Shown one piece after another: positions 1 to 20,401 of a stretch of DNA of 30,130 nt (its first letter is position 1; each line of letters opens with the position of its first letter). Below the pieces are notes generated by a model. The model was given only the letters and a program-made list of their open reading frames with translations, searched no databases and was not told the DNA's origin. The position numbers were made by a program, and so were the translations under genes. This DNA is from an uncultured Candidatus Poseidoniales archaeon (lineage in GTDB: Archaea; Thermoplasmatota; Poseidoniia; Poseidoniales; Thalassarchaeaceae), in NCBI GenBank assembly GCA_964470075.1, contig CAYYAH010000001.1:1-30130 (forward strand), in the 5' to 3' direction.

Positions 1-3000
1 TATCATCATCGGGATCGCTAGCATCCTGTATCCTGTCTCCATCCGTATCGAGATAGCAATCGTTGCTGGAAATCGCACCCTGCTGCAAGGTTATGTGGTT
101 CTCTGGGCAATCCTCGTAACCAGTGTTCCCAGACCCTATGACGTAACTGTCGAGTGGTGCAGGAGTCTGTTCCGACTGTCCTTCAGTTGAAACGTAGTAT
201 CCCGGGCTAGAGTCATCGCAAGAGAGTTGGCCGGGCAAGTCTTGGTATGTCCCGGGGCTGCAAGCGGTCTGGGATGCGCTGGCCTGCTTGTCTACGAAAT
301 ATCCCGGATCAGCGGGCATGCAATCTGCTGCACTGCCTGAAGATTGAGATGGGTTGTAGGTGCCAGCCGGACATGCTGACTGAGAAGTCGAAGCGAGAGA
401 GGAAACAAAGTAACCTGGATCTGCTTCCAAACAAGCTGACTGGGCCGAGTTTGGCTGATAGGTTCCCAGCGCACACTCAATCTGCTCTGGCGTTCCCCAC
501 TCGCCGGCGTAGTGGCCCGGTTCTACATCCATGCAATCATCTCGGTCATCAGAGCCTGTCTCCGGATTGTATGTTGTTGGAGGGCACTGCTTCTGTGTGT
601 CAGAAGCGATGCTGTCGACATAGTTCCCCGGTTCAGCTAGTGTGCACGAAGACGAGCCTGCGTACTGCTGGAACGAACCCAATTGGCATTCCAACTGAGT
701 CTGATAGTTCGTCCCAGGAACATAGTGTCCGGGATCGGCCATGATGCACGAAGATTGTCCTATGCTCGGCTGGTAGGTTCCTTTTGCACATGGAATCTGA
801 TCTGCTGCGCCAGCCATCGGGACGTAGTTTCCTGCATCGGATGGCAAGCAGTCCGAGGCGGAAATTGATCCACTCTGGGGGTTGTACGTACCAATCGAGC
901 AGGCGTCCTGATAGGTTGAGCCAGGGGCACTAACGTAGTGTCCTGGGGATGCCTGATTGCAAGCCGTCTGCGAGGTGTTTGCAGTGTATGTTCCGGGCGT
1001 GCATGGAGTCTGTGAAATAGCACCTGGAGAGGATACGAAGTATCCGGCATCGGCCTCTAGACAGGAAGTCTGACCAGATGCTGGCTGATAATGTCCGGGC
1101 GTGCATGGAGTCTGGTATGATGATCCAGGATCCGGAACCGCATAGCCGGGATCTGCGTCCATGCAGTCATCAGCGGAAGAGGACCCAAGAGACGGATTGT
1201 ATGTCCCCGACGAACATGGAGTAGGAGAAATGGCTGCGCTGGTATCGACGTAGTGTCCTGATGGAGAATCGATACATACTGAGGCTCCGGAATTGGGCTG
1301 GAATGTTCCTAGATCACATGCCGTCTGATTGGCCGACCCTGTGCTCGGAACATAGTGGCCCGGGTCAGCAGCATTACACCTGTCGGATCCAAAGAGAGGC
1401 TGGAACGAGCCGATGTCACAAGGAGTCTGAGAGGTCGCAGCTATCGTGTTCACATAATGACCGGGGTCGGACGGAAGGCAGTGAGATTGGCCAGTGCTCG
1501 GCTGATAGCCGCCAACCTGGCAGGCTGTCTGATTGGTTGCTGCTGTAATAGAAACATAGTAGCCCGCAGAGGCATCTATGCACGATGATTGTCCGGTGTT
1601 AGGTTGATAGGTGCCGTAGTAGCATTCAGTCTGCGAGGCAGAGGCCGTAGTATTCACAAAGTGACCGGCATCAGCATCCAGACAAGCCGATTGAGCGATT
1701 CCTGGCTGGTAAGTTCCAATTGAGCAGGCCTCCTGACTGGTTGCTCCTGTGGTGTTGACATAGTGGCCCGGAGAGGCCGGGTTCTGGTCAGCAGCCGCGT
1801 AGACATCGACATAGTGTCCGAGTGTTGCTTGGATGCAATATGTTTGCCCAGGCGCCGACTGGAAATTTCCAGGGGTGCACGGATATTGTGTGGTCGAACC
1901 AGTCGTATTGACGAAATATCCGGGGGCTGCATCGATGCATGAAGACTGTCCAGTACTCGGTTGGAAATTTCCAGGAGTGCACTGGTAGTCGGTTACTCCT
2001 AACTCGGCCTCGATACTCAAGTTAGGGTCTCCGACCACAAATCCGTCCAATGTCGAGAATAGCCAAACTTGCAATTGGTACTGTCCAGTTCCATTCCACG
2101 GTGAGACGAGGATGTACAGCATAGAATCTGACGAGAAGTTGGTGTTGTTCGTCGAAGTCTCATCATACGCAGTCGTATAACTAGAATTAAGGAGATTGAG
2201 ATTCTCGTCATAGATCGCCAAATCAAAATCTGCACCTGATGGAGATGTCAATCCAACACTTATTCCTGAGTCTCTCGGGACACTCATCATGAACAGGTCC
2301 TGAAGGTCTCCACTGGAGTGGATTGTCCCGTTGTATAGGGCACTATTTGCTGAGATATTGAATGCCGATGAATTGTATGAACCTGCATCACCGAAGTTCA
2401 GGTTTGAGTAATTTCCTGCTGCGCTGTCGACGCACGAAGTCTGTCCCACCTGCTCTTGATACGTACCCGGGGAGCATGAAGTCTGAGATGTTGCTTGTAC
2501 CATAGAAACGTAGTTCCCTGCGGAGGAATCGTAACACAAATCGTAACCAGAGCTGGGTTGGTAGGTCCCTACCATGCATGGTCGGTGATATAGATCTCCT
2601 GTAATCGCAAAGTGGCCTGGCTCAGCCGGTGAGCAGGCCAGTCTACCCCAGTGCCCTGGATCACAGTTCATCCATCTAGTTGGGTTGTTTGGATAGGGGT
2701 CAGAGGCTCCTGAAACACCGTCTCCATCATCATCTCCAGTCATGTGAGTATCAAGGATATTGACTATGCCATCTCCATCCATGTCTTGGTCTGAGTAGGC
2801 TATATCAGCACCACTAGTGAAGTTCATCGTGTGAGGAGTTAGCAGATCATCGGTTGTGCCATCGAACTCACCTGCCTGCCTGCCCCAACACTGTACAGAG
2901 TAGTCATCGAGAATGGCACATGTAGAGTCTGTTCCCGCCGAAATTGCAATTGCAGTTCTACCGGAACTCAGGCTTGTATGGACTGGTGTGTTGCCGTTCT

Positions 3001-4405
3001 CTCCAGTGCACCCACTAGAGGCTATGACAGAGCTGCAGGTGCCATCTCCCCATTGCCCATAGGTATTGACTCCCCAGCAGTTGATGGATCCGTTATCCAA
3101 AATCGCACACATGTGAGACGAGATTCCATCGATTGCTTCTGCTGTTCTACCGGTTGGGATGTCAATATGCACTGAGCCATTAGTAACTGCTCCATTCAAT
3201 GCTGAGGATGTATAGGTCTGCCCCCAGCAGTAAATCGAACCGTTCTCAAACAACGCGCATACGCCGAATCCAGGCGTAGAGATGGCGACTGCTCTCATTC
3301 CAGTAGAATGATTGACTTCGACAGGAGTATTACTGTCGCTGGTGGTTCCGTCACCTAGATTTCCATAGCCATTGAATCCCCAGCACTTGACAGCACCTGA
3401 ATTAGTAATAGCGCAAGTGAAATCGGTTCCAGTCGATATGGCTACGGCGGTTGTGTTTGTTCCTAAATCGACGCTGACTGGAGAGTTTCTATTGGAGTTC
3501 GAACCATCCCCCAGTTGGCCTAGGTTGTTACGGCCCCAGCAGTTGACTGAGCCATCCGTGAGAATAGCGCAGTTGTGGTTGTTGCCGTTTGAAATCGCTG
3601 CGGTTTGGTGGCCTCCGAAGTTTACAGTGCCGTTTGACTGAGAAAAAGAGCCCAGTCCCAGTTGGCCGTAGTTATTGGGGCCTGTGCATCTGAGGCTGTA
3701 GTTATCGAGTAATGCACAGTCTCCGGCTAGTGACACCACATCGTCATTGGTGTAAACAGGTTGCCCACCGCCGGTGCCAGTAGAGAAGGTCACTCTAGTC
3801 CCATTGTTCAGGATTATGGTAGGCGAGCCTGAGTTCATTTCGAAGATGGAGTGGGTGAACACCGAATCTCTCTGCGAGCCAGGCTGATTGAAGCCTAAGG
3901 AAGGGGTCGAAGAGGTGAACTCCGATACGGTCCACGAGTCTGTGCCCCATGAATCTCCGGAGGTACCTCCGTTACCATTGGCGAAATTTACCGCAAGAAG
4001 GAAGGTCACATCTCCCGTACCGGTAGAAGGAGCAGTCCAATCAACTGTCCATGTTCTTGCGTTGGAATTTGAATGGGTGACCTCTCCACTTACTATCTGG
4101 GCATTGGTGCCCGGGTTGGAGAAAGTTCCCGTTGAGGCGTCCAAATTGAATCCGCCATTTGTACCGGAAACTCCTCCTGATCCTCCAATTGAAAGAGAGT
4201 AAACCGTTCCAGGAGTATAACCTGAGCTTGGTATGCCCGTGGTCAGTGTCGGAGTCACTGTGTTTGTGCTGCCATGGCAGCCTCCGCAGCCTGAGCTGGA
4301 AGAGCCAGTCTTGCCGGAACTGTTGGCAAAGACTCCCTCGGGTACAGCCAGCACCATTACCATCAGTATCATTATTACAATTGCTCGTTGTCCTGACTTC
4401 TCCAT
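1..4405 (-). CDS. Giant secreted surface protein, partial (runs off left edge, >1468 aa): signal peptide, choice-of-anchor-V/reeler-like domain with CxxCH, RCC1 repeats, DxDGDG Ca-binding repeats, ephrin-receptor-like Cys repeats, PPC-like domain
   Basis: Translated by hand from ATG 4405 (MEKSGQRAIVIMILMVMVLAVPEGVFA|NSSGKTGSSSSGCGGCHG) to base 2 with no stop. RCC1-type motifs CAILTDGSVNCWGRNNLGQLGDG and CAITNSGAVKCWGFNGYGNLGDG (about 3720-2840). DMDGDG/DDDGDG (about 2790-2710). GADFDLAIYD PPC-like block (about 2400-2050). Ends LDTDGDRIQDASDPDDD. Not in the ORF track. Confidence 0.93.
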   Translation of the reverse strand, partial: MEKSGQRAIVIMILMVMVLAVPEGVFANSSGKTGSSSSGCGGCHGSTNTVTPTLTTGIPSSGYTPGTVYSLSIGGSGGVSGTNGGFNLDASTGTFSNPGTNAQIVSGEVTHSNSNARTWTVDWTAPSTGTGDVTFLLAVNFANGNGGTSGDSWGTDSWTVSEFTSSTPSLGFNQPGSQRDSVFTHSIFEMNSGSPTIILNNGTRVTFSTGTGGGQPVYTNDDVVSLAGDCALLDNYSLRCTGPNNYGQLGLGSFSQSNGTVNFGGHQTAAISNGNNHNCAILTDGSVNCWGRNNLGQLGDGSNSNRNSPVSVDLGTNTTAVAISTGTDFTCAITNSGAVKCWGFNGYGNLGDGTTSDSNTPVEVNHSTGMRAVAISTPGFGVCALFENGSIYCWGQTYTSSALNGAVTNGSVHIDIPTGRTAEAIDGISSHMCAILDNGSINCWGVNTYGQWGDGTCSSVIASSGCTGENGNTPVHTSLSSGRTAIAISAGTDSTCAILDDYSVQCWGRQAGEFDGTTDDLLTPHTMNFTSGADIAYSDQDMDGDGIVNILDTHMTGDDDGDGVSGASDPYPNNPTRWMNCDPGHWGRLACSPAEPGHFAITGDLYHRPCMVGTYQPSSGYDLCYDSSAGNYVSMVQATSQTSCSPGTYQEQVGQTSCVDSAAGNYSNLNFGDAGSYNSSAFNISANSALYNGTIHSSGDLQDLFMMSVPRDSGISVGLTSPSGADFDLAIYDENLNLLNSSYTTAYDETSTNNTNFSSDSMLYILVSPWNGTGQYQLQVWLFSTLDGFVVGDPNLSIEAELGVTDYQCTPGNFQPSTGQSSCIDAAPGYFVNTTGSTTQYPCTPGNFQSAPGQTYCIQATLGHYVDVYAAADQNPASPGHYVNTTGATSQEACSIGTYQPGIAQSACLDADAGHFVNTTASASQTECYYGTYQPNTGQSSCIDASAGYYVSITAATNQTACQVGGYQPSTGQSHCLPSDPGHYVNTIAATSQTPCDIGSFQPLFGSDRCNAADPGHYVPSTGSANQTACDLGTFQPNSGASVCIDSPSGHYVDTSAAISPTPCSSGTYNPSLGSSSADDCMDADPGYAVPDPGSSYQTPCTPGHYQPASGQTSCLEADAGYFVSSPGAISQTPCTPGTYTANTSQTACNQASPGHYVSAPGSTYQDACSIGTYNPQSGSISASDCLPSDAGNYVPMAGAADQIPCAKGTYQPSIGQSSCIMADPGHYVPGTNYQTQLECQLGSFQQYAGSSSCTLAEPGNYVDSIASDTQKQCPPTTYNPETGSDDRDDCMDVEPGHYAGEWGTPEQIECALGTYQPNSAQSACLEADPGYFVSSLASTSQSACPAGTYNPSQSSGSAADCMPADPGYFVDKQASASQTACSPGTYQDLPGQLSCDDSSPGYYVSTEGQSEQTPAPLDSYVIGSGNTGYEDCPENHITLQQGAISSNDCYLDTDGDRIQDASDPDDD
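160..1981 (-). repeat. Coding tandem array of 17 Cys-rich units (34 or 37 aa; consensus CxxGTYQPxxGQxSCxxAxPGHYVxxxxxxxQTx)
   Basis: First-Cys codons start at 1981, 1879, 1726, 1624, 1522, 1420, 1318, 1216, 1105, 1003, 901, 790, 688, 586, 475, 373 and 262 (spacing 102, 111, once 153 nt). Two to three further units lie at about 2410-2670. Confidence 0.92.
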
Positions 4406-4408
4406 AAT

Positions 4409-4414
4409 ATCACC
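4409..4414 (-). promoter_or_regulatory. Shine-Dalgarno-like GGTGAT
   Basis: GGTGAT just upstream of ATG 4405, matching the archaeal anti-SD consensus (GGAGGTGA). Confidence 0.55.
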
Positions 4415-4439
4415 ATGCACTCTTGAGGCAAAGACGTTG

Positions 4440-4455
4440 GTCGGACATGTCCGAC
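4440..4455. promoter_or_regulatory. Perfect 16-bp palindrome GTCGGACATGTCCGAC, candidate operator
   Basis: Exact dyad in the intergenic gap, 35-50 nt upstream of the surface-protein ATG. Confidence 0.4.
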
Positions 4456-4530
4456 TGTTGTCAATTAGCAGAGGAGCGGTTATCTAGGCAATATGACTAT
4501 TCCTGCGTCTCGGACACTAATGCATCACTA

Positions 4531-6300
4531 CTAATTGCCCCTCCAGTAACCAGGTAATTCCAGCTGTGTGACCGCGAACGCTTGCTCGGTCGAAGAGAAT
4601 TTTCTCTTGATCTCTCGTGCGCGTGCGGATACCAGACGCCAAGCGCCCTTACTGCTGATTCCAGGAATCGATTGTAACTGGTGTTGTGTCGCTGTGTTCA
4701 CATCGAGCCCTAGTTCGACCCCGGTTATACTACGCTTACCGTGGCCTGTAACCATGATGTCAGATGATGTTTCGAGGGGGATTCTATAGGGAACTCCGAC
4801 AAGAATCGGATATGCTCCAATCTGTCGACCGAAGGTTACTCCGGGCTTCCCTCGGATGTCCTCATTCCGGTACTTCGGGTCGAGAACTTGTTCGGGCCTT
4901 CGTATTCGGTCATCTTGTGCCTCCCACCAGATTTCCCTGAGGATGGTCCCAGTGGGTAGCATCTCCTCTAGGAGAGGTGAATCAATTTCATTCCTGACCT
5001 CTCTTTTGAATTTCTTGAAGGAGTTCTCAGGTACCTCTTGGAAGCCCTGCCCCTCGACCTGTCTGATGTTTATTCTCCTAAGCCAGAGGCCCTCAGACCT
5101 CAGGGTTCTGAGGAGTTCCATATTCATCTGGTAGCTCGCCTCTGTCTCGCCATTCAATCCGGCGATGAAATTGAGTCCAGGGAGGAGTTTTGGAAGTCCC
5201 CTAGCTCCCCTACTTCTGCCGAAATCATTGATGTGTCTGACGGCAGTCTTGAGTTGCTCAGGGTTGCAGTTCAACCAGTTCTGTTCGTGTACCTCCGGGT
5301 CAGCCGACTCAAGTCCGAATGAGAGGACTGCTCCGTCAGATAGTGTGTCTACGAGTGTTCTGGTTATCTCAGTCGAAGGCTCAATGCTCTCAGCCACAAT
5401 TGAGGGATTTGCGTTATCGACATGTAGAATCTGAATCCTGTCGTCATCGCGCGCGCCATGCAGTACTTTTGCTATTGGTTCGGGATTTGGAATTGGGTAC
5501 TCTAACTCCTCTACTCCTTCCGCCTTGTAAGTGTAGATATCTGTAGCCCCTCCTATCCTGATATTGACGACTCCAGAATCCAATGCTGCTGTGATCTCTG
5601 TCAATACGTCTTCCTCGGAGCGCCATAGAGGCAAGCCCTTCTTCGGCTCGATACAGAATCTGCAGCCGCGTTTGAATCGAACGCATCCCTGATACAGTTC
5701 AATCTCGTAAGTCAGCGGACCTAATCTGCCATCTTCTGCTATCAGATCGGGATGGTCCGTTACGGCCCTAGAAGAGGCTCCTGAGAGTGCCCAATTAGAC
5801 CACTGCTCAGGAGTTCTCTTTCGGTGCTCCCAGATTCCTGTCGAGATGAAGTTATCGAGGGTCGCATCGGTGTCTTGGACGGCGCAGAACAGGTTGGAGC
5901 GTAATGGAGTCCAGCCGTCATACCTCCAATGACGTATAGCCCACCCTCCACACAGAACTGGTGAGGATGAAGGAATAATCGAAAGTACCTCGTCGAGTTC
6001 CTTTCGACTAATCGGAGTGCCTCTGACATATTTCCCAGGAACTATTGCCCCTGCAAGAATCACTGCACCGTCAAGTCCTGATAGTTCACTGCGTAGAGAT
6101 ATTCTTTCCTCCGGATTGGAGAGGCGTTCCTTGTGGTGCAGCCTCCACTGATCGATTGTCATGTAGTTGTAAGGAATTCCACGGGACTCCAGAACGCCGC
6201 AGATGTATCTGATATGAAAGCCAAGGTAGTTCGGGACTCCGAACGCAGCGGGCTCATCCTCGTATCCGTCTAGGACAAGCCAACCTTCCAGTTGTTCCAC
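4531..6300 (-). CDS. Radical SAM protein with C-terminal helix-hairpin-helix (COG1031-like)
   Basis: N-terminal LDGYEDEPAAFGVPNY; YEIELYQGCVRFKRGCRFC (Cx6Cx2C); GLESAD; TFGRQIGAYPILVG; HhH DVNTATQHQLQSIPGIS. GTG start. Confidence 0.88.
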   Translation of the reverse strand: MEQLEGWLVLDGYEDEPAAFGVPNYLGFHIRYICGVLESRGIPYNYMTIDQWRLHHKERLSNPEERISLRSELSGLDGAVILAGAIVPGKYVRGTPISRKELDEVLSIIPSSSPVLCGGWAIRHWRYDGWTPLRSNLFCAVQDTDATLDNFISTGIWEHRKRTPEQWSNWALSGASSRAVTDHPDLIAEDGRLGPLTYEIELYQGCVRFKRGCRFCIEPKKGLPLWRSEEDVLTEITAALDSGVVNIRIGGATDIYTYKAEGVEELEYPIPNPEPIAKVLHGARDDDRIQILHVDNANPSIVAESIEPSTEITRTLVDTLSDGAVLSFGLESADPEVHEQNWLNCNPEQLKTAVRHINDFGRSRGARGLPKLLPGLNFIAGLNGETEASYQMNMELLRTLRSEGLWLRRINIRQVEGQGFQEVPENSFKKFKREVRNEIDSPLLEEMLPTGTILREIWWEAQDDRIRRPEQVLDPKYRNEDIRGKPGVTFGRQIGAYPILVGVPYRIPLETSSDIMVTGHGKRSITGVELGLDVNTATQHQLQSIPGISSKGAWRLVSARAREIKRKFSSTEQAFAVTQLELPGYWRGN

Positions 6301-14582: not shown

Positions 14583-15602
14583 ATGAGTGCATTTGATTGG
14601 TTCGATATTTTGTTGCTGGCTGCAATACTATGCGCAGCGGTTGCTCCATTTGTGTGGGCAGTGCGCTCTGAGACCAGCGTTGCGCTAGCAACAGTTCTCT
14701 CACTCCTCCTAGTCTCATTTGTTCAGTTCGCAGAGTCGACATTGGGGGGCTTTGCAATGAGTCAATCATGGGTGATAGATTCTATGGGGATCAAGCCGAA
14801 CATTATGACAAATACAGCAGAGTCCTACCGAATGGTGACTGCAGCGTGGCTGCACGCTGACTGGGTTCATGTTCTTGGAAACATACTCGTCGTGGCTTTG
14901 GTCGGAGTCCCCTTGGAACAGCGCCTTGGCGCTCGTAGGTGGATTGTAGCATATTCTCTAGGATTCATGGGAGGTAACATCGCATGGATTCTAACTCATC
15001 CAGAGTCATCAATCCCTGCTATTGGGGCCAGCGGAGCGGCATTCGGGCTACTGGGGGCATACATGGCATGCTGGCCAGAAGATAAGATTGAGTTCCCACT
15101 ACTATTCTTGATTAGGGCATGGCCGGTTTGGCTAATTGTCTTCGTTAGACTTGGACTTGAGGTCTGGCAGATTTACGACTTACAAACTGCGACTGCTGGA
15201 CAGTCTAATGTTGCCCACATGGCACATGTCGGCGGATTCTTCCTAGCGTATCTGCTCGCAAGACCGCTGGCGCGAGGCGCGCCGAGCTCCCTAGACGAAC
15301 CTTCGGGAACCTCTGGCGCAGAGCGTTCTACTGCAATGAGAGAGCAAGCGAAGAGTCGTATGGGTAGTCTGGAAGAAGATCCTTGGGCCATAGCAGGAAA
15401 ACCGCTTCACGGCGCCGCTAATAGAATAATGACGCGTCTCAGAGAAGAGGGGGATGAGTTGGAAACTAGAAGGGCATGGCTAGAGGAGCTGTCTGAGAAT
15501 GCTATCTGCCCTACATGTGACGGCGAGATTGTAACAGAGATGGATGGTGAAATCTGTCGTCTCAGATGTACGCTCTCTGGCTCCCATCTCAAGTGGCCGT
15601 AA
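14583..15602 (+). CDS. Rhomboid intramembrane serine protease with C-terminal Cys/His zinc-ribbon-like tail
   Basis: WLHADWVHVLGN, GASG (Ser 15030), AHVGG (His 15225); tail CPTC..CRLRC..H. Likely start MSAFDW. Confidence 0.9.
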   Translation: MSAFDWFDILLLAAILCAAVAPFVWAVRSETSVALATVLSLLLVSFVQFAESTLGGFAMSQSWVIDSMGIKPNIMTNTAESYRMVTAAWLHADWVHVLGNILVVALVGVPLEQRLGARRWIVAYSLGFMGGNIAWILTHPESSIPAIGASGAAFGLLGAYMACWPEDKIEFPLLFLIRAWPVWLIVFVRLGLEVWQIYDLQTATAGQSNVAHMAHVGGFFLAYLLARPLARGAPSSLDEPSGTSGAERSTAMREQAKSRMGSLEEDPWAIAGKPLHGAANRIMTRLREEGDELETRRAWLEELSENAICPTCDGEIVTEMDGEICRLRCTLSGSHLKWP

Positions 15603-15670
15603 TCGCATCCAGACTACGCCGATACAGGTTGGGATTATACAGCATCCGAGTTTGGCTCTCTGTGAGAGCC

Positions 15671-18600
15671 ATGCCAGATAGCACTAGGATGAGGATTCCG
15701 CTAATCATCGCGCTTCTTGTGTTCGTGATGGATGTCTCAGTGGCTGCTGGAGCCTTGGTACCCTCGCCAAATCAACCTTCGGATAGCATATCAGATGGCT
15801 CTATTGATGCGGATTTACCCCCTCTGATGTGTGGAGATAGTATCTGTCTCGACAAAGATCGGTCTCCTGGATTCCCTCCTCCCGGGGCCGGCTGGCCAGT
15901 TGAGGAACCCGGGTGGTGGTTCGGCTACTGGTACGACCTAGATTCCAATGGGATGGATGACAGGTTGCAGAGAGTGATTGCCGGCCAGAGGAATTCAGTC
16001 TCCACCACCTCGATAACCGGGGCAGATGGGCTCCCAACGGTTGCAATTGTAGTGGATTATTCATGGCATCCGGGAACCGAAGACATCAGTGCAATCAAGC
16101 AAGTTCTGTACGACCATGGATGGGATGAGGAGGGATCGTGGTTCGACCCTCTTGGCATCCTTGATTCAATTGTCATCGATCATGTCCCGGTCAGTTCATT
16201 GATTGACATCTGGTCTCTCGATGGAGTGGTGATGATTGAAGAGCAGAATGTCATTGTCCCTCTACTCGACAAGGCCACTCGTGGCTCCAAGGTGAGAGAT
16301 TCGGAAGTCTTTGATGAGACTATGCGAGACTTCGGCTACGATGGCTCAGGCGTTGTTATTGCGATTCTTGATACCGGTGTAGACAACGAGCATTTCTCAC
16401 TCGATGACTTCTCCGACTCGAACAATGACAATGAGAAGGATCCGGACGAATTGGCTGATCCAAAGTGGTTGGCAGGTTGCGACGCCACATCGTGGAGTTC
16501 ACAGGACTGTGACGATGGTAGTTTAGACCCAGATGATGGGGACGGGCATGGCACTCATGTTGCAGGAATCGCCCTAGGTACAGGAGATTCCCGTAGAATA
16601 AACCAAGGATACGCCCCTGGAGCTTACCTAGTCGATGTCAAGGTCATGACTGATGCTGGTGCTACCAATTCCGCTGCAACCCTCAGGGGCATTCAGTGGG
16701 TAGTTGACAATGTCGATACTGATTGGGGCAATAACGATTCTAGCGAGGGCATTCAAGTGATGTCAATGTCGTTCGGTTCCGCTAGCCCCGGCGGGGATGA
16801 TGATCCCGGAGATAACGGTACAAATGCCGATGCTAGGGCAGTAGATGCTGCGGCTGAAGCTGGGATAGTTCCCGTAGCTGCAATCGGAAACGATGGTAAG
16901 CGCAGGGTGACTTCGGTCGGAGCCTCTGACAGTGCTATCACGGTTGGAGCAATCGATGATGAGAACACCATTGAGCGTGGAGACGATATGATTGCATCCT
17001 ATTCAAACTCGGGACCCAGAGAGGATGATGGCGATGACAATGAGTGGGAAGAACTCAAGCCCACGGTAGTAGCTCCTGGATCTAACATCATGTCAGCGCA
17101 GCATGCTGCTTCAAGCAGCACTCTGCCGGGCGCTCCCAAGCCTCTGGCCGAGGATAGTTACACTCAGTTGACGGGAACCAGTATGTCTTGCCCTGCGGTA
17201 GCAGGATTTGTTGCCGTCATGCTCCAAATCGATGATGGTTTGAAGCCTCAAGAAGTCAAGGACCTTCTACAGAACAATTCCGAGACTCGTGGTCAGGCAT
17301 CTCTTCCCGATATCAGTAACAGATGGAACGAAGACTACGGATTTGGAATCATCGATGGCAATCTGATTCTGAATGCCATGCTTGGAGGAAACGTTGACCC
17401 TGGCCCTGGTAATGGAACAGAACCTCCACCTACAGGCTCTGGAGAATGGGTTGTAATGGAGAGTCCTGAAGAAGATGCTTGGCTGGTCGAGGGTGAGACT
17501 TACAGCGCCAGAGGACACATCGACGAGGACAAGGATACTAACGGCACGATTGAGGAGGTATCAGTCAGAGTTTCTTACTCTCACAGGCCTGAGGGGGAAC
17601 CGAAACAAGAGGTCGTATTGGTCGACTGGCATGCAGCGCAAGGTACGACTAACTGGACTACTCCATTCACTCTGCCAGAATTTTCTGAAGATGAGATTGA
17701 GGTAATCGAAGTAATCATAGAGGCTCAAGCCAGAAATGAATTTGAACAGTGGAGTGAGGTTGTAGAGCAGAAGCACGAAGTCGGCCTCGTAGCGGTAACA
17801 ATGGGAGGCCCCAGTGGCCAAGAGGCTGTTTCAGGTAGTGTCAATGTCTTCGGCACATGGGAATCGGTCAATGGCGGCACCGTTCAATGGAGAATAGGTA
17901 CGGAGCCTTGGGAAACTGCACAGACATTCGGAGGTAGTGGCAGCTCCAATGGCGACTGGTCTGTAACATGGAACACAGAGAACGTGGATGATGGCTTCTA
18001 CAGAATCTCGGCCAGAATGGTCAGCGGCGACGGAATCTACTCTGAGGAAGTCAAGAGAGTTGTCGAGGTCGATAATGATCCGCCAGCGCCTAATCTGATT
18101 TTCAGGACTGGGCTGTCAGTAGAGGAGTATGGAACACCCATCAGTGAGACGTACGTCAATACATTCCTTGAGATCAGGACAGAAATCCGCAACGATGGTG
18201 ATATGACTGCCTCCGACTTAGCGATCTCACTGTACGAAGATGGAGCTCGTAAGGATGAGATGGTGCTACCCAGCATCGATAGTGGAGATATCGTTGAGGT
18301 GGTCCTATATTGGAATCCAACCACTATTGGAGACAAGACTGTGTTGGTTTCCCTCGACCCTGCGAATACAATTGAGGAGTTGGATGAGACGGATAACGAT
18401 CAGTCGATTACATTCCCTGTGATTCAAAGGCCCCAAGGAATTGATCTTGCATTCAGAGATGGGGCCATCAGAACTGAGCCTCCGATTCCAAGACCAAACG
18501 ACCAATTCCTGATTACGGCTAGAGTTGACAATCTTGGTTCGACCGACGCAACGAGTGTTGAGGCTTCTCTTGAGATACACAATGGCCTCGGATGGGTACT

Positions 18601-20401
18601 GGTATCCTCGACAGCGATTCCACTTGTGATGGGGCAGGGTGCCTCGCAAATCTCCTTCGCGCATCGCGTGAACGGGTCTGGACCGGTCCACGTCAGAGTA
18701 ACTATTGCCGGGTCTGGACTGGCAGATTTGGACTGGTCGAACAACCAAGTAGAGTCAACAGTCCTCGTCGATGAATCTACTCTAGCTGGCTCTCGATCCA
18801 TGACATTCGGTACTGGAGAAGTTCCAATCAGGCTGATAGATCTGGATGATGAGGGATTAGTAATTACTGAAAAAGAGGGAGTGCTATCTCTGTATCGGCT
18901 GAACTCCAATAGGATGTTGACCTCATGCACGAATGTATTGGATGAGATGTGGTCAGGTGATCTCGCCTTCAGTAGTACAGAGGATGGTTGGGCTCACATT
19001 GTTTGGACTAGGCGTTTCATTGACTCCACTGGTTACTTCAGGCAGACACTTAGTTACTCTACAATCGATGCAAGTTGTGAAATGACACCAATTCAGGACC
19101 TGATGCAGCCAATCCTGCTATCTGACGGGAAGTATTGGGGAATAGATATCGATGTAGACGATTCGGAGATACTCGTCTCAGGATACCATAGAGAAATGAT
19201 GACTGGTGGCTCGTTCGGTGACCAGACTAGTGTTTTCATCCTACATGCGGACGCGCCTACTAAGTCCTCAGACTGGTCACTAACTCCGAATGTAGTAGAT
19301 GAGATTGATTTGATTCCTGGAGAGACTACATCTCTTGATGTGGAGTTCGGAGATGATGACGGCGCACATCTTCTATACAAATCGACTAGAAGCGATTCGA
19401 CAGGAATAGAGAGGCATGGTCTTTGGTATGCGCACGGAATGGTTGAGCAGTCATCTTGGACATTCAGAAAATCCATAGCTGATGATGTTACTCTTGCCAA
19501 GATGAAGGTGTTTGTGATTGATGATGATGAGAGGATAGTGGCAACTTGGAAACAGGGCGAGGGATTGGAGGCCGAGATGGTAGCAATGATTGCCGATTCG
19601 TCATTCAATGCAATCGAAAATCTGACTGCAACATTCCCTGCTAGGGGTATGACGACTATCGATCTTGTTGAGACGAGTAGGGGCGTCCAGATTCTATTCG
19701 ATTTAGTTGGCCCTACTGGTCCACAGGTGAACTACGGAATCATCGACCCCGAAGAAGGATGGTTTGGTATTTACGATAGGCTAAATCTTGGCAATCTGTA
19801 CTTAGTTGACAGGTCCCCTTCGAGTAGTGAGACTTTGTTTATCCATACTTCTGCTAGTGGTTGGCAGATTAGAGCAGTGATTGATGATTACGATCCCAAC
19901 AGAGTCGGAGATTCTATACTAGAGAAATTACGCCACCAATTAGGCCTAGATGAACAGAACTTCAACATCCTACTTGGTGGCTTTGCTATCGCGGTGCTGC
20001 TACTTTGCACTGTCATCCTAGTGAGTCTCTCAGCTAGAGGGCTCAGATGGGTCAGAAGAAACAGAAGTGTTGCCTCGGGAGTTGTGATGTTAGAGGAGGA
20101 TGTGGTAGATGTGGTCGATGATTCTGACATCAAGGTGGTAGCAGAAATTGAGTCCGAAGAATCGGAGGAAGTCGAATTAGTAGAAGAAGTGGTAATTCCT
20201 ACTTCTACGCCAGAGATGCCCCCTGCCACTCTGCCTTTACCAGAGATGCCTGCGCCTCAGGGAAGTGGTGAACCGGGTCCGCCTGCACCGCCTCCTCTGA
20301 ACATGCCAGTAATCTGTCCTAGTTGCTCTAGCAGATTCGAGATTGCAATGGGCAATTCATCAGTAAACTGCCCAGTTTGCGATAAGCGGATAGTTCTCTG
20401 A
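15671..20401 (+). CDS. Large membrane-anchored subtilisin-like (S8) protease with Ig-like and two CARDB domains, C-terminal TM and zinc ribbon
   Basis: Catalytic triad ILDTG (16370), HGTHVAG (16547), GTSMS (17180). CARDB ends EELDETDN and DLDWSNN. TM about 19967-20035. Tail CPSC..CPVC. Start 15671 or 15689. Confidence 0.92.
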   Translation: MPDSTRMRIPLIIALLVFVMDVSVAAGALVPSPNQPSDSISDGSIDADLPPLMCGDSICLDKDRSPGFPPPGAGWPVEEPGWWFGYWYDLDSNGMDDRLQRVIAGQRNSVSTTSITGADGLPTVAIVVDYSWHPGTEDISAIKQVLYDHGWDEEGSWFDPLGILDSIVIDHVPVSSLIDIWSLDGVVMIEEQNVIVPLLDKATRGSKVRDSEVFDETMRDFGYDGSGVVIAILDTGVDNEHFSLDDFSDSNNDNEKDPDELADPKWLAGCDATSWSSQDCDDGSLDPDDGDGHGTHVAGIALGTGDSRRINQGYAPGAYLVDVKVMTDAGATNSAATLRGIQWVVDNVDTDWGNNDSSEGIQVMSMSFGSASPGGDDDPGDNGTNADARAVDAAAEAGIVPVAAIGNDGKRRVTSVGASDSAITVGAIDDENTIERGDDMIASYSNSGPREDDGDDNEWEELKPTVVAPGSNIMSAQHAASSSTLPGAPKPLAEDSYTQLTGTSMSCPAVAGFVAVMLQIDDGLKPQEVKDLLQNNSETRGQASLPDISNRWNEDYGFGIIDGNLILNAMLGGNVDPGPGNGTEPPPTGSGEWVVMESPEEDAWLVEGETYSARGHIDEDKDTNGTIEEVSVRVSYSHRPEGEPKQEVVLVDWHAAQGTTNWTTPFTLPEFSEDEIEVIEVIIEAQARNEFEQWSEVVEQKHEVGLVAVTMGGPSGQEAVSGSVNVFGTWESVNGGTVQWRIGTEPWETAQTFGGSGSSNGDWSVTWNTENVDDGFYRISARMVSGDGIYSEEVKRVVEVDNDPPAPNLIFRTGLSVEEYGTPISETYVNTFLEIRTEIRNDGDMTASDLAISLYEDGARKDEMVLPSIDSGDIVEVVLYWNPTTIGDKTVLVSLDPANTIEELDETDNDQSITFPVIQRPQGIDLAFRDGAIRTEPPIPRPNDQFLITARVDNLGSTDATSVEASLEIHNGLGWVLVSSTAIPLVMGQGASQISFAHRVNGSGPVHVRVTIAGSGLADLDWSNNQVESTVLVDESTLAGSRSMTFGTGEVPIRLIDLDDEGLVITEKEGVLSLYRLNSNRMLTSCTNVLDEMWSGDLAFSSTEDGWAHIVWTRRFIDSTGYFRQTLSYSTIDASCEMTPIQDLMQPILLSDGKYWGIDIDVDDSEILVSGYHREMMTGGSFGDQTSVFILHADAPTKSSDWSLTPNVVDEIDLIPGETTSLDVEFGDDDGAHLLYKSTRSDSTGIERHGLWYAHGMVEQSSWTFRKSIADDVTLAKMKVFVIDDDERIVATWKQGEGLEAEMVAMIADSSFNAIENLTATFPARGMTTIDLVETSRGVQILFDLVGPTGPQVNYGIIDPEEGWFGIYDRLNLGNLYLVDRSPSSSETLFIHTSASGWQIRAVIDDYDPNRVGDSILEKLRHQLGLDEQNFNILLGGFAIAVLLLCTVILVSLSARGLRWVRRNRSVASGVVMLEEDVVDVVDDSDIKVVAEIESEESEEVELVEEVVIPTSTPEMPPATLPLPEMPAPQGSGEPGPPAPPPLNMPVICPSCSSRFEIAMGNSSVNCPVCDKRIVL

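Follow-up and report, generated by a model that had tools for sequence, protein, structure and literature searches.

A giant, probable surface protein of Poseidoniales with a Reeler-like tip and an RCC1-like propeller on a rod of Ephrin_rec_like repeats

The left end of a 30,130-nucleotide stretch of DNA from an uncultured Candidatus Poseidoniales archaeon (GenBank assembly GCA_964470075.1, contig CAYYAH010000001.1; hereafter the window) encodes a giant exported protein. Its signal peptide is followed by a small tip domain carrying a CGGCH motif, a seven-bladed RCC1-like propeller, a short acidic linker, and a rod of 19 repeat units that is interrupted after the second unit by a β-sandwich. 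The domain order is read directly from the frame, whereas the folds of the propeller, rod and sandwich come from structure models. This protein is probably a membrane-anchored surface spike in which a binding head is held on a rigid, cysteine-pinned stalk for contact with an external ligand; that a ligand is bound, and of what kind it is, we infer. An original prediction made from the sequence alone had proposed a disulfide-stabilised stalk presenting a head, and this view is supported by our model of the rod and its insert (pLDDT, the predicted local distance difference test, of 92) and by the topology of orthologues.

The gene occupies one stop-free frame on the minus strand that runs from window position 4420 to 2 and exits at the contig end. 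From the orthologue-supported ATG (4405-4403) to the contig edge (window 2-4405, minus) there are exactly 1,468 codons, which agrees with the single frame of >1468 aa reported in the original prediction. That prediction mentioned neither the minus strand nor the C-terminal location of the missing part. Residues are numbered here from the start of the stop-to-stop frame P0001, five codons ahead of this ATG. The window covers positions 1-30,130 of contig C1, which belongs to an assembly of 1.13 Mb that is 63% complete, and because the contig ends inside the gene, the C-terminus is cut off. Thus, the window carries the N-terminal 84% of a protein that is about 1,740 residues long in full. The signal peptide noted earlier is upheld by the Phe-Ala preceding its predicted cut, which is invariant in 22 orthologues, and the amino acid composition (Lys plus Arg 1.6%, Asp plus Glu 9.2%) fits an exported archaeal protein.

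Extension of the contig leftward had been suggested as a check. Within the same assembly it leads nowhere, as the remaining ~270 residues are absent from every other contig, but full-length orthologues do reveal them. Contig C50 was considered as a continuation of the gene and ruled out, since it carries a complete, separate paralogue of 1,069 residues with a signal peptide, seven RCC1 blades, a DPDGDG motif, ~13-20 repeats, a membrane helix and a basic tail.

At least 5,300 relatives were found among the 5.8 billion proteins searched. The full-length orthologues have 1,742 amino acids and share 89% identity across 99% of the query with an identical domain order. One member of the 90% cluster, MFL2498452.1 from Candidatus Thalassarchaeum sp., is annotated as 'choice-of-anchor V domain-containing protein', and JGI labels the orthologues 'alpha-tubulin suppressor-like RCC1 family protein'. 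The SufB protein encoded in the window likewise clusters with proteins named Ca. Thalassarchaeum. Together with NMD3, which the window also encodes, these names place the organism in Marine Group IIb (Thalassarchaeaceae). The window copy agrees with Poseidoniales orthologues such as MFL2498452.1 in domain order and gene neighbours, but it lacks the last ~270 residues owing to the contig end and carries CxxCH where most orthologues have Cx4CH.

The missing end can be read from orthologue P0004, in which 269 more residues comprise thrombospondin-3-like (TSP3-like) DxDxDG repeats, a single membrane helix, and ~100 residues of cytoplasmic tail. Against the TSP3 hidden Markov models (HMMs) PF02412 and PF18884, this C-terminal region scores 23.7 and 18.9 bits, which is below the cut-off of 25, although the DxDxDG motifs are visible. 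The elements of a type I topology are divided between the signal peptide, which is in the window, and the single C-terminal membrane helix, which is seen in orthologues only. Within the tail, a ~50-residue module with the pattern GQLVW.D.SG.VY.QNPDGS...F....G.W (P0004:1688-1742, P0025:1692-1741) is kept throughout the orthologues, the most distant of which share 51% overall identity, and also in a sister subfamily that has no tip domain. A Pfam search with the cytoplasmic tail at E values up to 10 assigned no family (best E 0.014), and an ESM Atlas search was uninformative. Comparable Trp-rich C-terminal tails are present on other Marine Group II surface proteins (P0234, P0289, P0300).

The rod accounts for much of the length of the protein. 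The original prediction described about 20 CxxGTYQ-type repeats resembling the PF07699 (Ephrin_rec_like) family, and named a failure to match this family as evidence that would count against it. The repeats do match PF07699 with an E value of 1.3e-43 (147 bits, cut-off 23.1, spread over 10 stretches), and a genome-wide search gives 12 separate matches in the window, nine of which exceed the cut-off. There are 19 units in total, each of 34, 37 or 51 residues with two Cys residues, in the order 34, 34, insert, 34, 51, five of 34, 37, 34, 34, 37, 34, 34, 37, 34, 37, 34. The number of units and their pattern of lengths are unchanged in orthologues at 89%, 68% and 51% identity, and the pattern is largely retained in the sister subfamily that lacks the tip (~1,600-1,700 residues). 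Relatives with the shared layout span 35-89% identity, as expected of a length-constrained spacer. By gapped alignment, units within the protein share a mean identity of just 39% (maximum 62%), which indicates that the array is old and that its units are not recent duplicates. The protein has 58 Cys residues, an even number, with two in the tip, 14 in the propeller, two in the Cys-x9-Cys hairpin, 38 in the units, and two following them. Those covered by two orthologue alignments, one of the propeller region and one of repeat units 1-4, are all invariant.

An AlphaFold2 model of residues 600-900 built from 44 homologues (pLDDT 91.9, predicted template modelling score 0.81) consists of runs of short two-stranded hairpins together with the β-sandwich. 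When this rod and insert were compared with the PDB using Foldseek, the best match was MST1, a mastigoneme protein of Chlamydomonas (9b4h; E 1.7e-10 over 313 aligned columns), followed by ELAPOR1 and the EphA2 and EphA4 ectodomains (9vqm, 2x10, 4m4r), with a probability of 1.00 for these as for MST1. The earlier remark that this repeat family is typical of eukaryotic surface proteins is in keeping with these nearest solved structures. The likeness to Eph receptors and ELAPOR1 is evident in both the HMM score and the fold matches. However, the dense Cys pattern of those proteins and of MST1 is not found here, where each 34-residue unit of two hairpins has two Cys residues and alternate hairpins are Cys-free.

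The β-sandwich inserted in the rod was anticipated as a PPC-like domain, a designation that holds for its fold but not for its sequence. Foldseek superposes it on the PPC domain of a Bacillus anthracis collagenase (5sv5; template modelling (TM) score 0.69, root-mean-square deviation (rmsd) 2.4 Å) and on the collagen-binding domain of ColG (1nqd; TM 0.76, rmsd 2.2 Å), both TM scores being by target, and it also matches the jelly roll of the Thermococcus protease Tk-SP (3afg) with 22% identity. No match to PF04151 (PPC) was obtained with the whole protein at E values up to 0.1 or with excised residues 670-815 at E values up to 10, and the excised piece matched no Pfam family at all at the latter threshold. 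Among the HMM scans proposed with the original prediction, those with PF07699 and PF00415/PF13540 were therefore positive and the one with PF04151 was negative. The arrangement also differs from that of the proteases, in which the PPC domain ends the protein rather than interrupting a repeat array.

The RCC1 propeller that had been recognised in the original prediction is equally clear. Residues 244-519 match PF00415 (3.2e-21, 76.1 bits), PF13540 (2.6e-28, 97.5 bits) and PF25390 (6.5e-38), the bit scores of the first two comparing with cut-offs of ~22. The AlphaFold2 model of this region has seven blades with pLDDT values of 85-95, and its Foldseek matches are UVR8 (TM 0.78, E 7e-24, ~380 columns), HERC2, RPGR and RCC1. 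A Cys-x9-Cys pair is invariant in each of six blades, and one further Cys pair is invariant as well. The acidic linker that joins the propeller to the rod contains DxDGDG motifs at residues 544 and 563, as had been noticed before, and their Asp and Gly residues are invariant in orthologues. Its match to the TSP_3 HMM is weak (17.1 bits, cut-off 25).

The outermost domain belongs to the choice-of-anchor V family (NF041895; 98.4 bits against a cut-off of 42, residues 18-162). Its relation to the Pfam Reeler family is apparent both from the window protein (1.1e-4) and from the matches of 14 of 32 diverse family members. Five residues do not vary across these 32 proteins, namely two Cys, a His, His116 and Asp156. 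A profile search of 1.84 billion cluster representatives yielded 5,350 proteins in which the domain nearly always comes right after the signal peptide; among the best 150 of them, its start falls near residue 20-35 in almost every case. The domain also caps stalks made of PKD, Big_5, fn3 and TSP3 domains. A search of PDB sequences with the tip-domain profile returned no match.

Table 1. Features of the giant surface protein gene and their positions in the window.
Feature	P0001 residues	Window position	Strand	Basis
Start codon ATG	6	4403..4405	-	MEK.GQR at start of all orthologues
Signal peptide, predicted cut after VFA (before NS)	6-32	4325..4405	-	Basic n-region and hydrophobic core read from sequence
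Tip, choice-of-anchor V (NF041895), Reeler-like β domain		3911..4324	-	NF041895, E 3.8e-28
CGGCH motif	45-49	4274..4288	-	Sequence motif scan
Seven-bladed RCC1-like propeller	~190-532	2825..3853	-	Pfam, AlphaFold2, Foldseek
Acidic linker with two DxDGDG calcium-type motifs	540-585	2666..2803	-	Motif scan
Cys-x9-Cys hairpin and repeat units 1-2	586-682	2375..2665	-	Model, pLDDT 87-98
Inserted β-sandwich, PPC/collagen-binding-domain fold	687-804	2009..2362	-	Foldseek
Repeat units 3-19, Ephrin_rec_like, 34-residue period, two Cys per unit	811-1420	161..1990	-	PF07699
Last Cys pair and onset of thrombospondin-3-like calcium repeats, cut by contig end		2..160	-	Sequence read

Taken as a surface spike, the protein would be a type I membrane glycoprotein that stands on the cell. 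As judged from orthologues, its base would comprise the conserved ~50-residue cytoplasmic module, the single membrane helix, and a calcium-binding thrombospondin-3-like part. Above this, the rod of 19 two-hairpin units, each with one Cys pair and with the PPC/collagen-binding-like sandwich set in after unit 2, might serve as a spacer of fixed length that is stiffened by calcium and disulfides. By analogy to MST1, 38 hairpins at 11 Å each would make a rod of roughly 40 nm. The short calcium-type linker would then lead to the propeller, with its Cys pair in six blades, and the Reeler-like choice-of-anchor V tip with its conserved Cys/Cys/His/His/Asp site would be outermost. Presumably, the spacer keeps the propeller, tip and sandwich clear of the cell so that they can bind a polymer, a particle or another cell, and the conserved tail may couple the spike to an intracellular partner. 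This reading is consistent with the view of Rinke et al. 2019, who interpreted 'thrombospondin genes' of Poseidoniales as adhesion genes (PMC6461757).

Several points weigh against the spike proposal. The topology rests on orthologues because the C-terminal anchor is missing from both the window and the assembly. Disulfides between the Cys pairs are deduced from their invariance and even number, and glycosylation is simply assumed, as the 25 N-glycosylation sequons are close to the ~20 expected from composition and show no enrichment. In an AlphaFold2 model of residues 28-600 made from 24 orthologues, the tip has a pLDDT under 50 and is unusable. In favour of the proposal, pieces of the gene with 0-5 mismatches are present in three marine metatranscriptomes from two studies, which suggests that the gene is transcribed; against it, contigs from RNA libraries can contain DNA, and carry-over is possible. 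On a 6.4-kb stretch, the RNA runs gave six, two and five contig records, all but one of which lie on the gene, several with 0-1 differences, and the best run has no record on the adjoining radical SAM gene.

The alternative that survives best, which we nevertheless consider unlikely, is a structural coat or hair resembling an S-layer, a glycocalyx or a mastigoneme, in which many copies of the protein and its paralogues would provide spacing or protection from grazers and viruses. Support for such a role begins with the best solved match of the rod, because MST1 is a mastigoneme filament protein whose cysteine-rich tandem forms a rod highly similar to the Eph-receptor cysteine-rich domain, with the rungs of its disulfide ladder ~11 Å apart (PMC10602792). 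Indeed, MST1 (9b4h, 8wa2, 8tx1) shares with the window protein an extracellular rod of ephrin-receptor-like cysteine-rich modules. It differs in that it polymerises into a filament, has nine Ig domains and a hydroxyproline-rich helix, and has no propeller or membrane helix. MST1 also has about one disulfide per hairpin, compared to one Cys pair per two hairpins here, and the two sequences are only 14% identical. A coat would further accord with the fixed length of the rod, with the lineage-wide occurrence of the family (PF07699 is found in 47 of 59 sampled genomes of the same archaeal family), with the conserved position of the gene among housekeeping genes, and with the presence of at least one complete paralogue (on C50) and several other giant TSP3-repeat proteins in the genome. 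However, propellers, PPC/collagen-binding-like sandwiches and Reeler-like domains typically serve in binding, the analysis found no region that would form a lattice or polymerise, and a passive coat would not need a conserved cytoplasmic tail.

A second alternative is a transmembrane receptor in the manner of CRINKLY4 or Eph receptors but without a kinase, in which binding at the head would be reported through the helix and tail. The ectodomain of the plant CRINKLY4 proteins (ACR4/CR4; 7a0j, 7a0k) was also matched by Foldseek (E ~1e-10), more weakly than UVR8, and has the same order of parts, in which TNFR-like cysteine-rich modules and a single membrane helix come after a seven-bladed extracellular propeller. 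In CR4, however, the cysteine-rich region is short and a cytoplasmic kinase is present, whereas the protein described here combines 19 units with an inserted sandwich and a tip domain, and no known domain is found in its ~100-residue tail. The retention of the ~50-residue tail module in all orthologues and in the tip-less sister subfamily would suit a receptor. Contrary to this idea, the tail has no recognisable signalling domain, a rigid rod of tens of nanometres would transmit a conformational change poorly, and no conserved partner gene adjoins. We regard signalling by this protein as improbable.

The CGGCH motif raises a third alternative, in which the tip would bind heme c, copper or iron for remote electron exchange or metal capture. 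The CxxCH domain seen in the original prediction is real in the sense that the motif is present and lies inside the NF041895 domain, directly after the signal peptide. Genes for ccmC-like and ccmAB-like (ABC transporter) proteins are encoded 8 kb from the gene and CcmE elsewhere in the genome. In addition, contig C52 (~1525-3867, minus; L018:1-2022:-) encodes a signal peptide, a CNCH-containing choice-of-anchor V/Reeler-like domain, and a membrane helix at the N-terminus, on the outer face, of a heme-copper oxidase subunit I (COX1, E 3.3e-142). The same fusion exists in unrelated cluster representatives (P0242, P0281). The invariance of the Cys/Cys/His/His/Asp site across the 32 diverse members could also speak for a cofactor. 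Four or five more small or mid-sized exported choice-of-anchor V proteins are encoded on C37 (794-1636, minus), C7 (two genes) and C5 (a 391-residue frame near CcmE), and these have Cys-x(1-3)-Cys-His immediately after the signal peptide.

The spacing of the motif argues against heme. Among the 28 listed orthologues that bear the motif, Cx4CH occurs in 23 and CxxCH in three, the window protein included. In the wider family, where 138 of the best 149 proteins have the motif, the counts are 107 for CxCH, 12 for CxxCH and 16 for Cx4CH, and CxCH is also the spacing in the three oxidase fusions examined. To our knowledge, the one-residue spacing of CxCH is not a heme c attachment site. Classical heme binding is therefore unlikely for a family that mostly has CxCH, and a heme site at the CxxCH of the window protein was likewise judged unlikely. 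A motif census of the 63%-complete genome showed no canonical CxxCH cytochrome c, though the CcmC-like, CcmAB-like and CcmE genes are present. Since the domain usually caps ordinary adhesin-type stalks and the two Cys residues could simply make a small disulfide loop, a stalk built to hold a redox or metal-handling head seems very unlikely. That the Reeler-like tip is a metal or redox centre of some kind, tens of nanometres from the cell, is a narrower and still doubtful claim, and the disulfide loop is an equally simple reading of the same residues. If the tip were such a centre, it would represent a previously unrecognised cofactor domain common to the respiration and the surface proteins of the most abundant planktonic archaea of the ocean.

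A separate matter is the origin of the repeats, which the original prediction considered possibly eukaryotic. PF07699 has been described as an invention of early eukaryotes, with one actinobacterial case ascribed to gene transfer (PMC6993872). Import into Marine Group II archaea from eukaryotes would fit this view, and it would also fit the distribution of the family: PF07699 is found in 60 of 121 sampled Poseidoniales genomes, with 47 of 59 in the family of our organism compared to 10 of 59 in the other large family, and in a separate sample of 201 Thermoplasmatota genomes (E up to 1e-5) it is found in just one genome beyond Poseidoniales. Moreover, past the close archaeal relatives, the named structural neighbours in AlphaFold DB have eukaryotic-type names (SCUBE2, GCC2/GCC3, mastigoneme-like), and in the ESM Atlas, those neighbouring clusters for which taxa are recorded belong to eukaryotes (Cnidaria, Haptophyta).

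A different picture emerges from prokaryotic genomes. Species-representative genomes were scanned with a degenerate DNA pattern that requires two CxxGxYQ motifs exactly 34 codons apart. The matches are a sample, with about four expected by chance, and single-match loci such as those in Ureaplasma and Marinicella may be among these. Most of the matches listed are from Poseidoniales, but multi-match arrays among them also occur in Solirubrobacterales, Acidimicrobiia, other Actinomycetota, Terriglobales, Blastocatellia, Chloroflexia and Dehalococcoidia. Nine loci were translated, and seven of these have arrays of 7-10 units at 34-residue spacing, with two and five units in the others. Signal peptides are present in most of the nine and C-terminal anchors in some, and the arrays derive from soil, freshwater and the sea. 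Five of the translated bacterial proteins match PF07699 with E values from 1e-20 to 3e-58, and the arrays in Actinomycetota, Acidobacteriota and Chloroflexota have 8-10 units. The mean ungapped identity between bacterial units and those of the window protein is 0.33-0.41, which equals that of the window units among themselves (0.36 by the same measure).

Two of these bacterial proteins resemble the archaeal one beyond the repeats. L045, from a marine Acidimicrobiaceae metagenome-assembled genome (MAG) (1926-5090, minus), has a signal peptide, an RCC1 propeller, 34-residue units and a PGF-like C-terminal hydrophobic anchor. L057, from a Blastocatellia MAG (1261-3642, plus), has a signal peptide and an FG-GAP propeller on the same 34-residue rod, with no C-terminal anchor. 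Thus, the propeller-on-stalk build recurs in both domains of life. The two proteins differ from the window protein in being shorter (~800-1,050 amino acids), and neither showed a choice-of-anchor V domain or a PPC-like domain.

Because the same two-Cys repeats are arrayed in three bacterial phyla, nothing points to a eukaryotic import, and the suggested eukaryotic origin is not supported by these sequence comparisons. Scores of single repeats against PF07699 are only 20-30 bits, a PDB sequence search with the repeats at E values up to 1 returned no eukaryotic chain or any other match, and the array consists of old units that have kept their positions. That Marine Group II specifically imported the repeats from eukaryotes is therefore highly doubtful. 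Judged by sequence, the Cys-poor 34-residue subtype is a prokaryotic stalk module that is present in both archaea and bacteria. Apart from the family assignment of the sandwich, the sequence features claimed in the original prediction hold up, and none is due to chance.

The gene resides in a conserved housekeeping region and not in an island, as its neighbours are shared with the contigs of orthologues. Upstream, the contigs with the 89% orthologue have the same genes for a radical SAM enzyme, a Csl4-RRM protein, a methyltransferase, RmuC, an M23 peptidase, PGI, the archaeal/eukaryotic factor NMD3 (encoded in the window) and a CcmC-like protein, and the genes downstream of that orthologue are ordinary metabolic genes. 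Nearly identical DNA was found in marine and estuarine metagenomes, at least 17 of them, from nine studies. The gene is separated from the upstream radical SAM gene by 125 bases, which contain a perfect 16-base palindrome, GTCGGACATGTCCGAC (window 4440-4455, 35 bases before the ATG), that might act as a site for a regulator or as the stem of a terminator.

Other giant exported proteins are encoded nearby and in related genomes. The window itself encodes a second one (15566-20401, plus; 1,611 amino acids) with subtilase S8 (1.7e-47) and CARDB domains, adjoining a gene for a rhomboid protease. More open frames of 830-1,690 residues with thrombospondin-3-like calcium repeats are present on contigs C12, C126, C121 and C16 of the same assembly, so that this small genome devotes a notable share of its coding capacity to giant surface proteins. 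A complete 1.6-Mb genome of the same family (G027) has an orthologue of 1,701 residues at ~675-677 kb and, at 317,700-324,700 of its contig C1, at least three tandem Ephrin_rec_like paralogues of ~1,020-1,076 residues.

The family is annotated by NCBI and JGI yet is uncharacterised, and it is widespread and built from known modules. We found no paper that describes archaeal PF07699 proteins. What is added here is the subfamily with the Reeler-like tip, the spacing argument against heme, the oxidase fusion, and the demonstration of the repeat subtype in bacterial phyla. Ephrin_rec_like has been treated as a eukaryotic invention (PMC6993872), and its Cys-poor 34-residue subtype is instead a standard stalk module of archaea and at least three bacterial phyla. 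Given its invariant Cys/His site and its fusion to cytochrome oxidase subunit I, the choice-of-anchor V domain is a testable candidate for a cofactor domain. Neither of these two points alters the basic reading of the window protein as a surface protein. Marine Group II archaea rank with the most abundant microbes of the surface ocean, and we know of no culture of these organisms and no description of their cell envelope. Proteins such as the one reported here probably form a large part of the surface that these archaea present to particles, algae, viruses and grazers.

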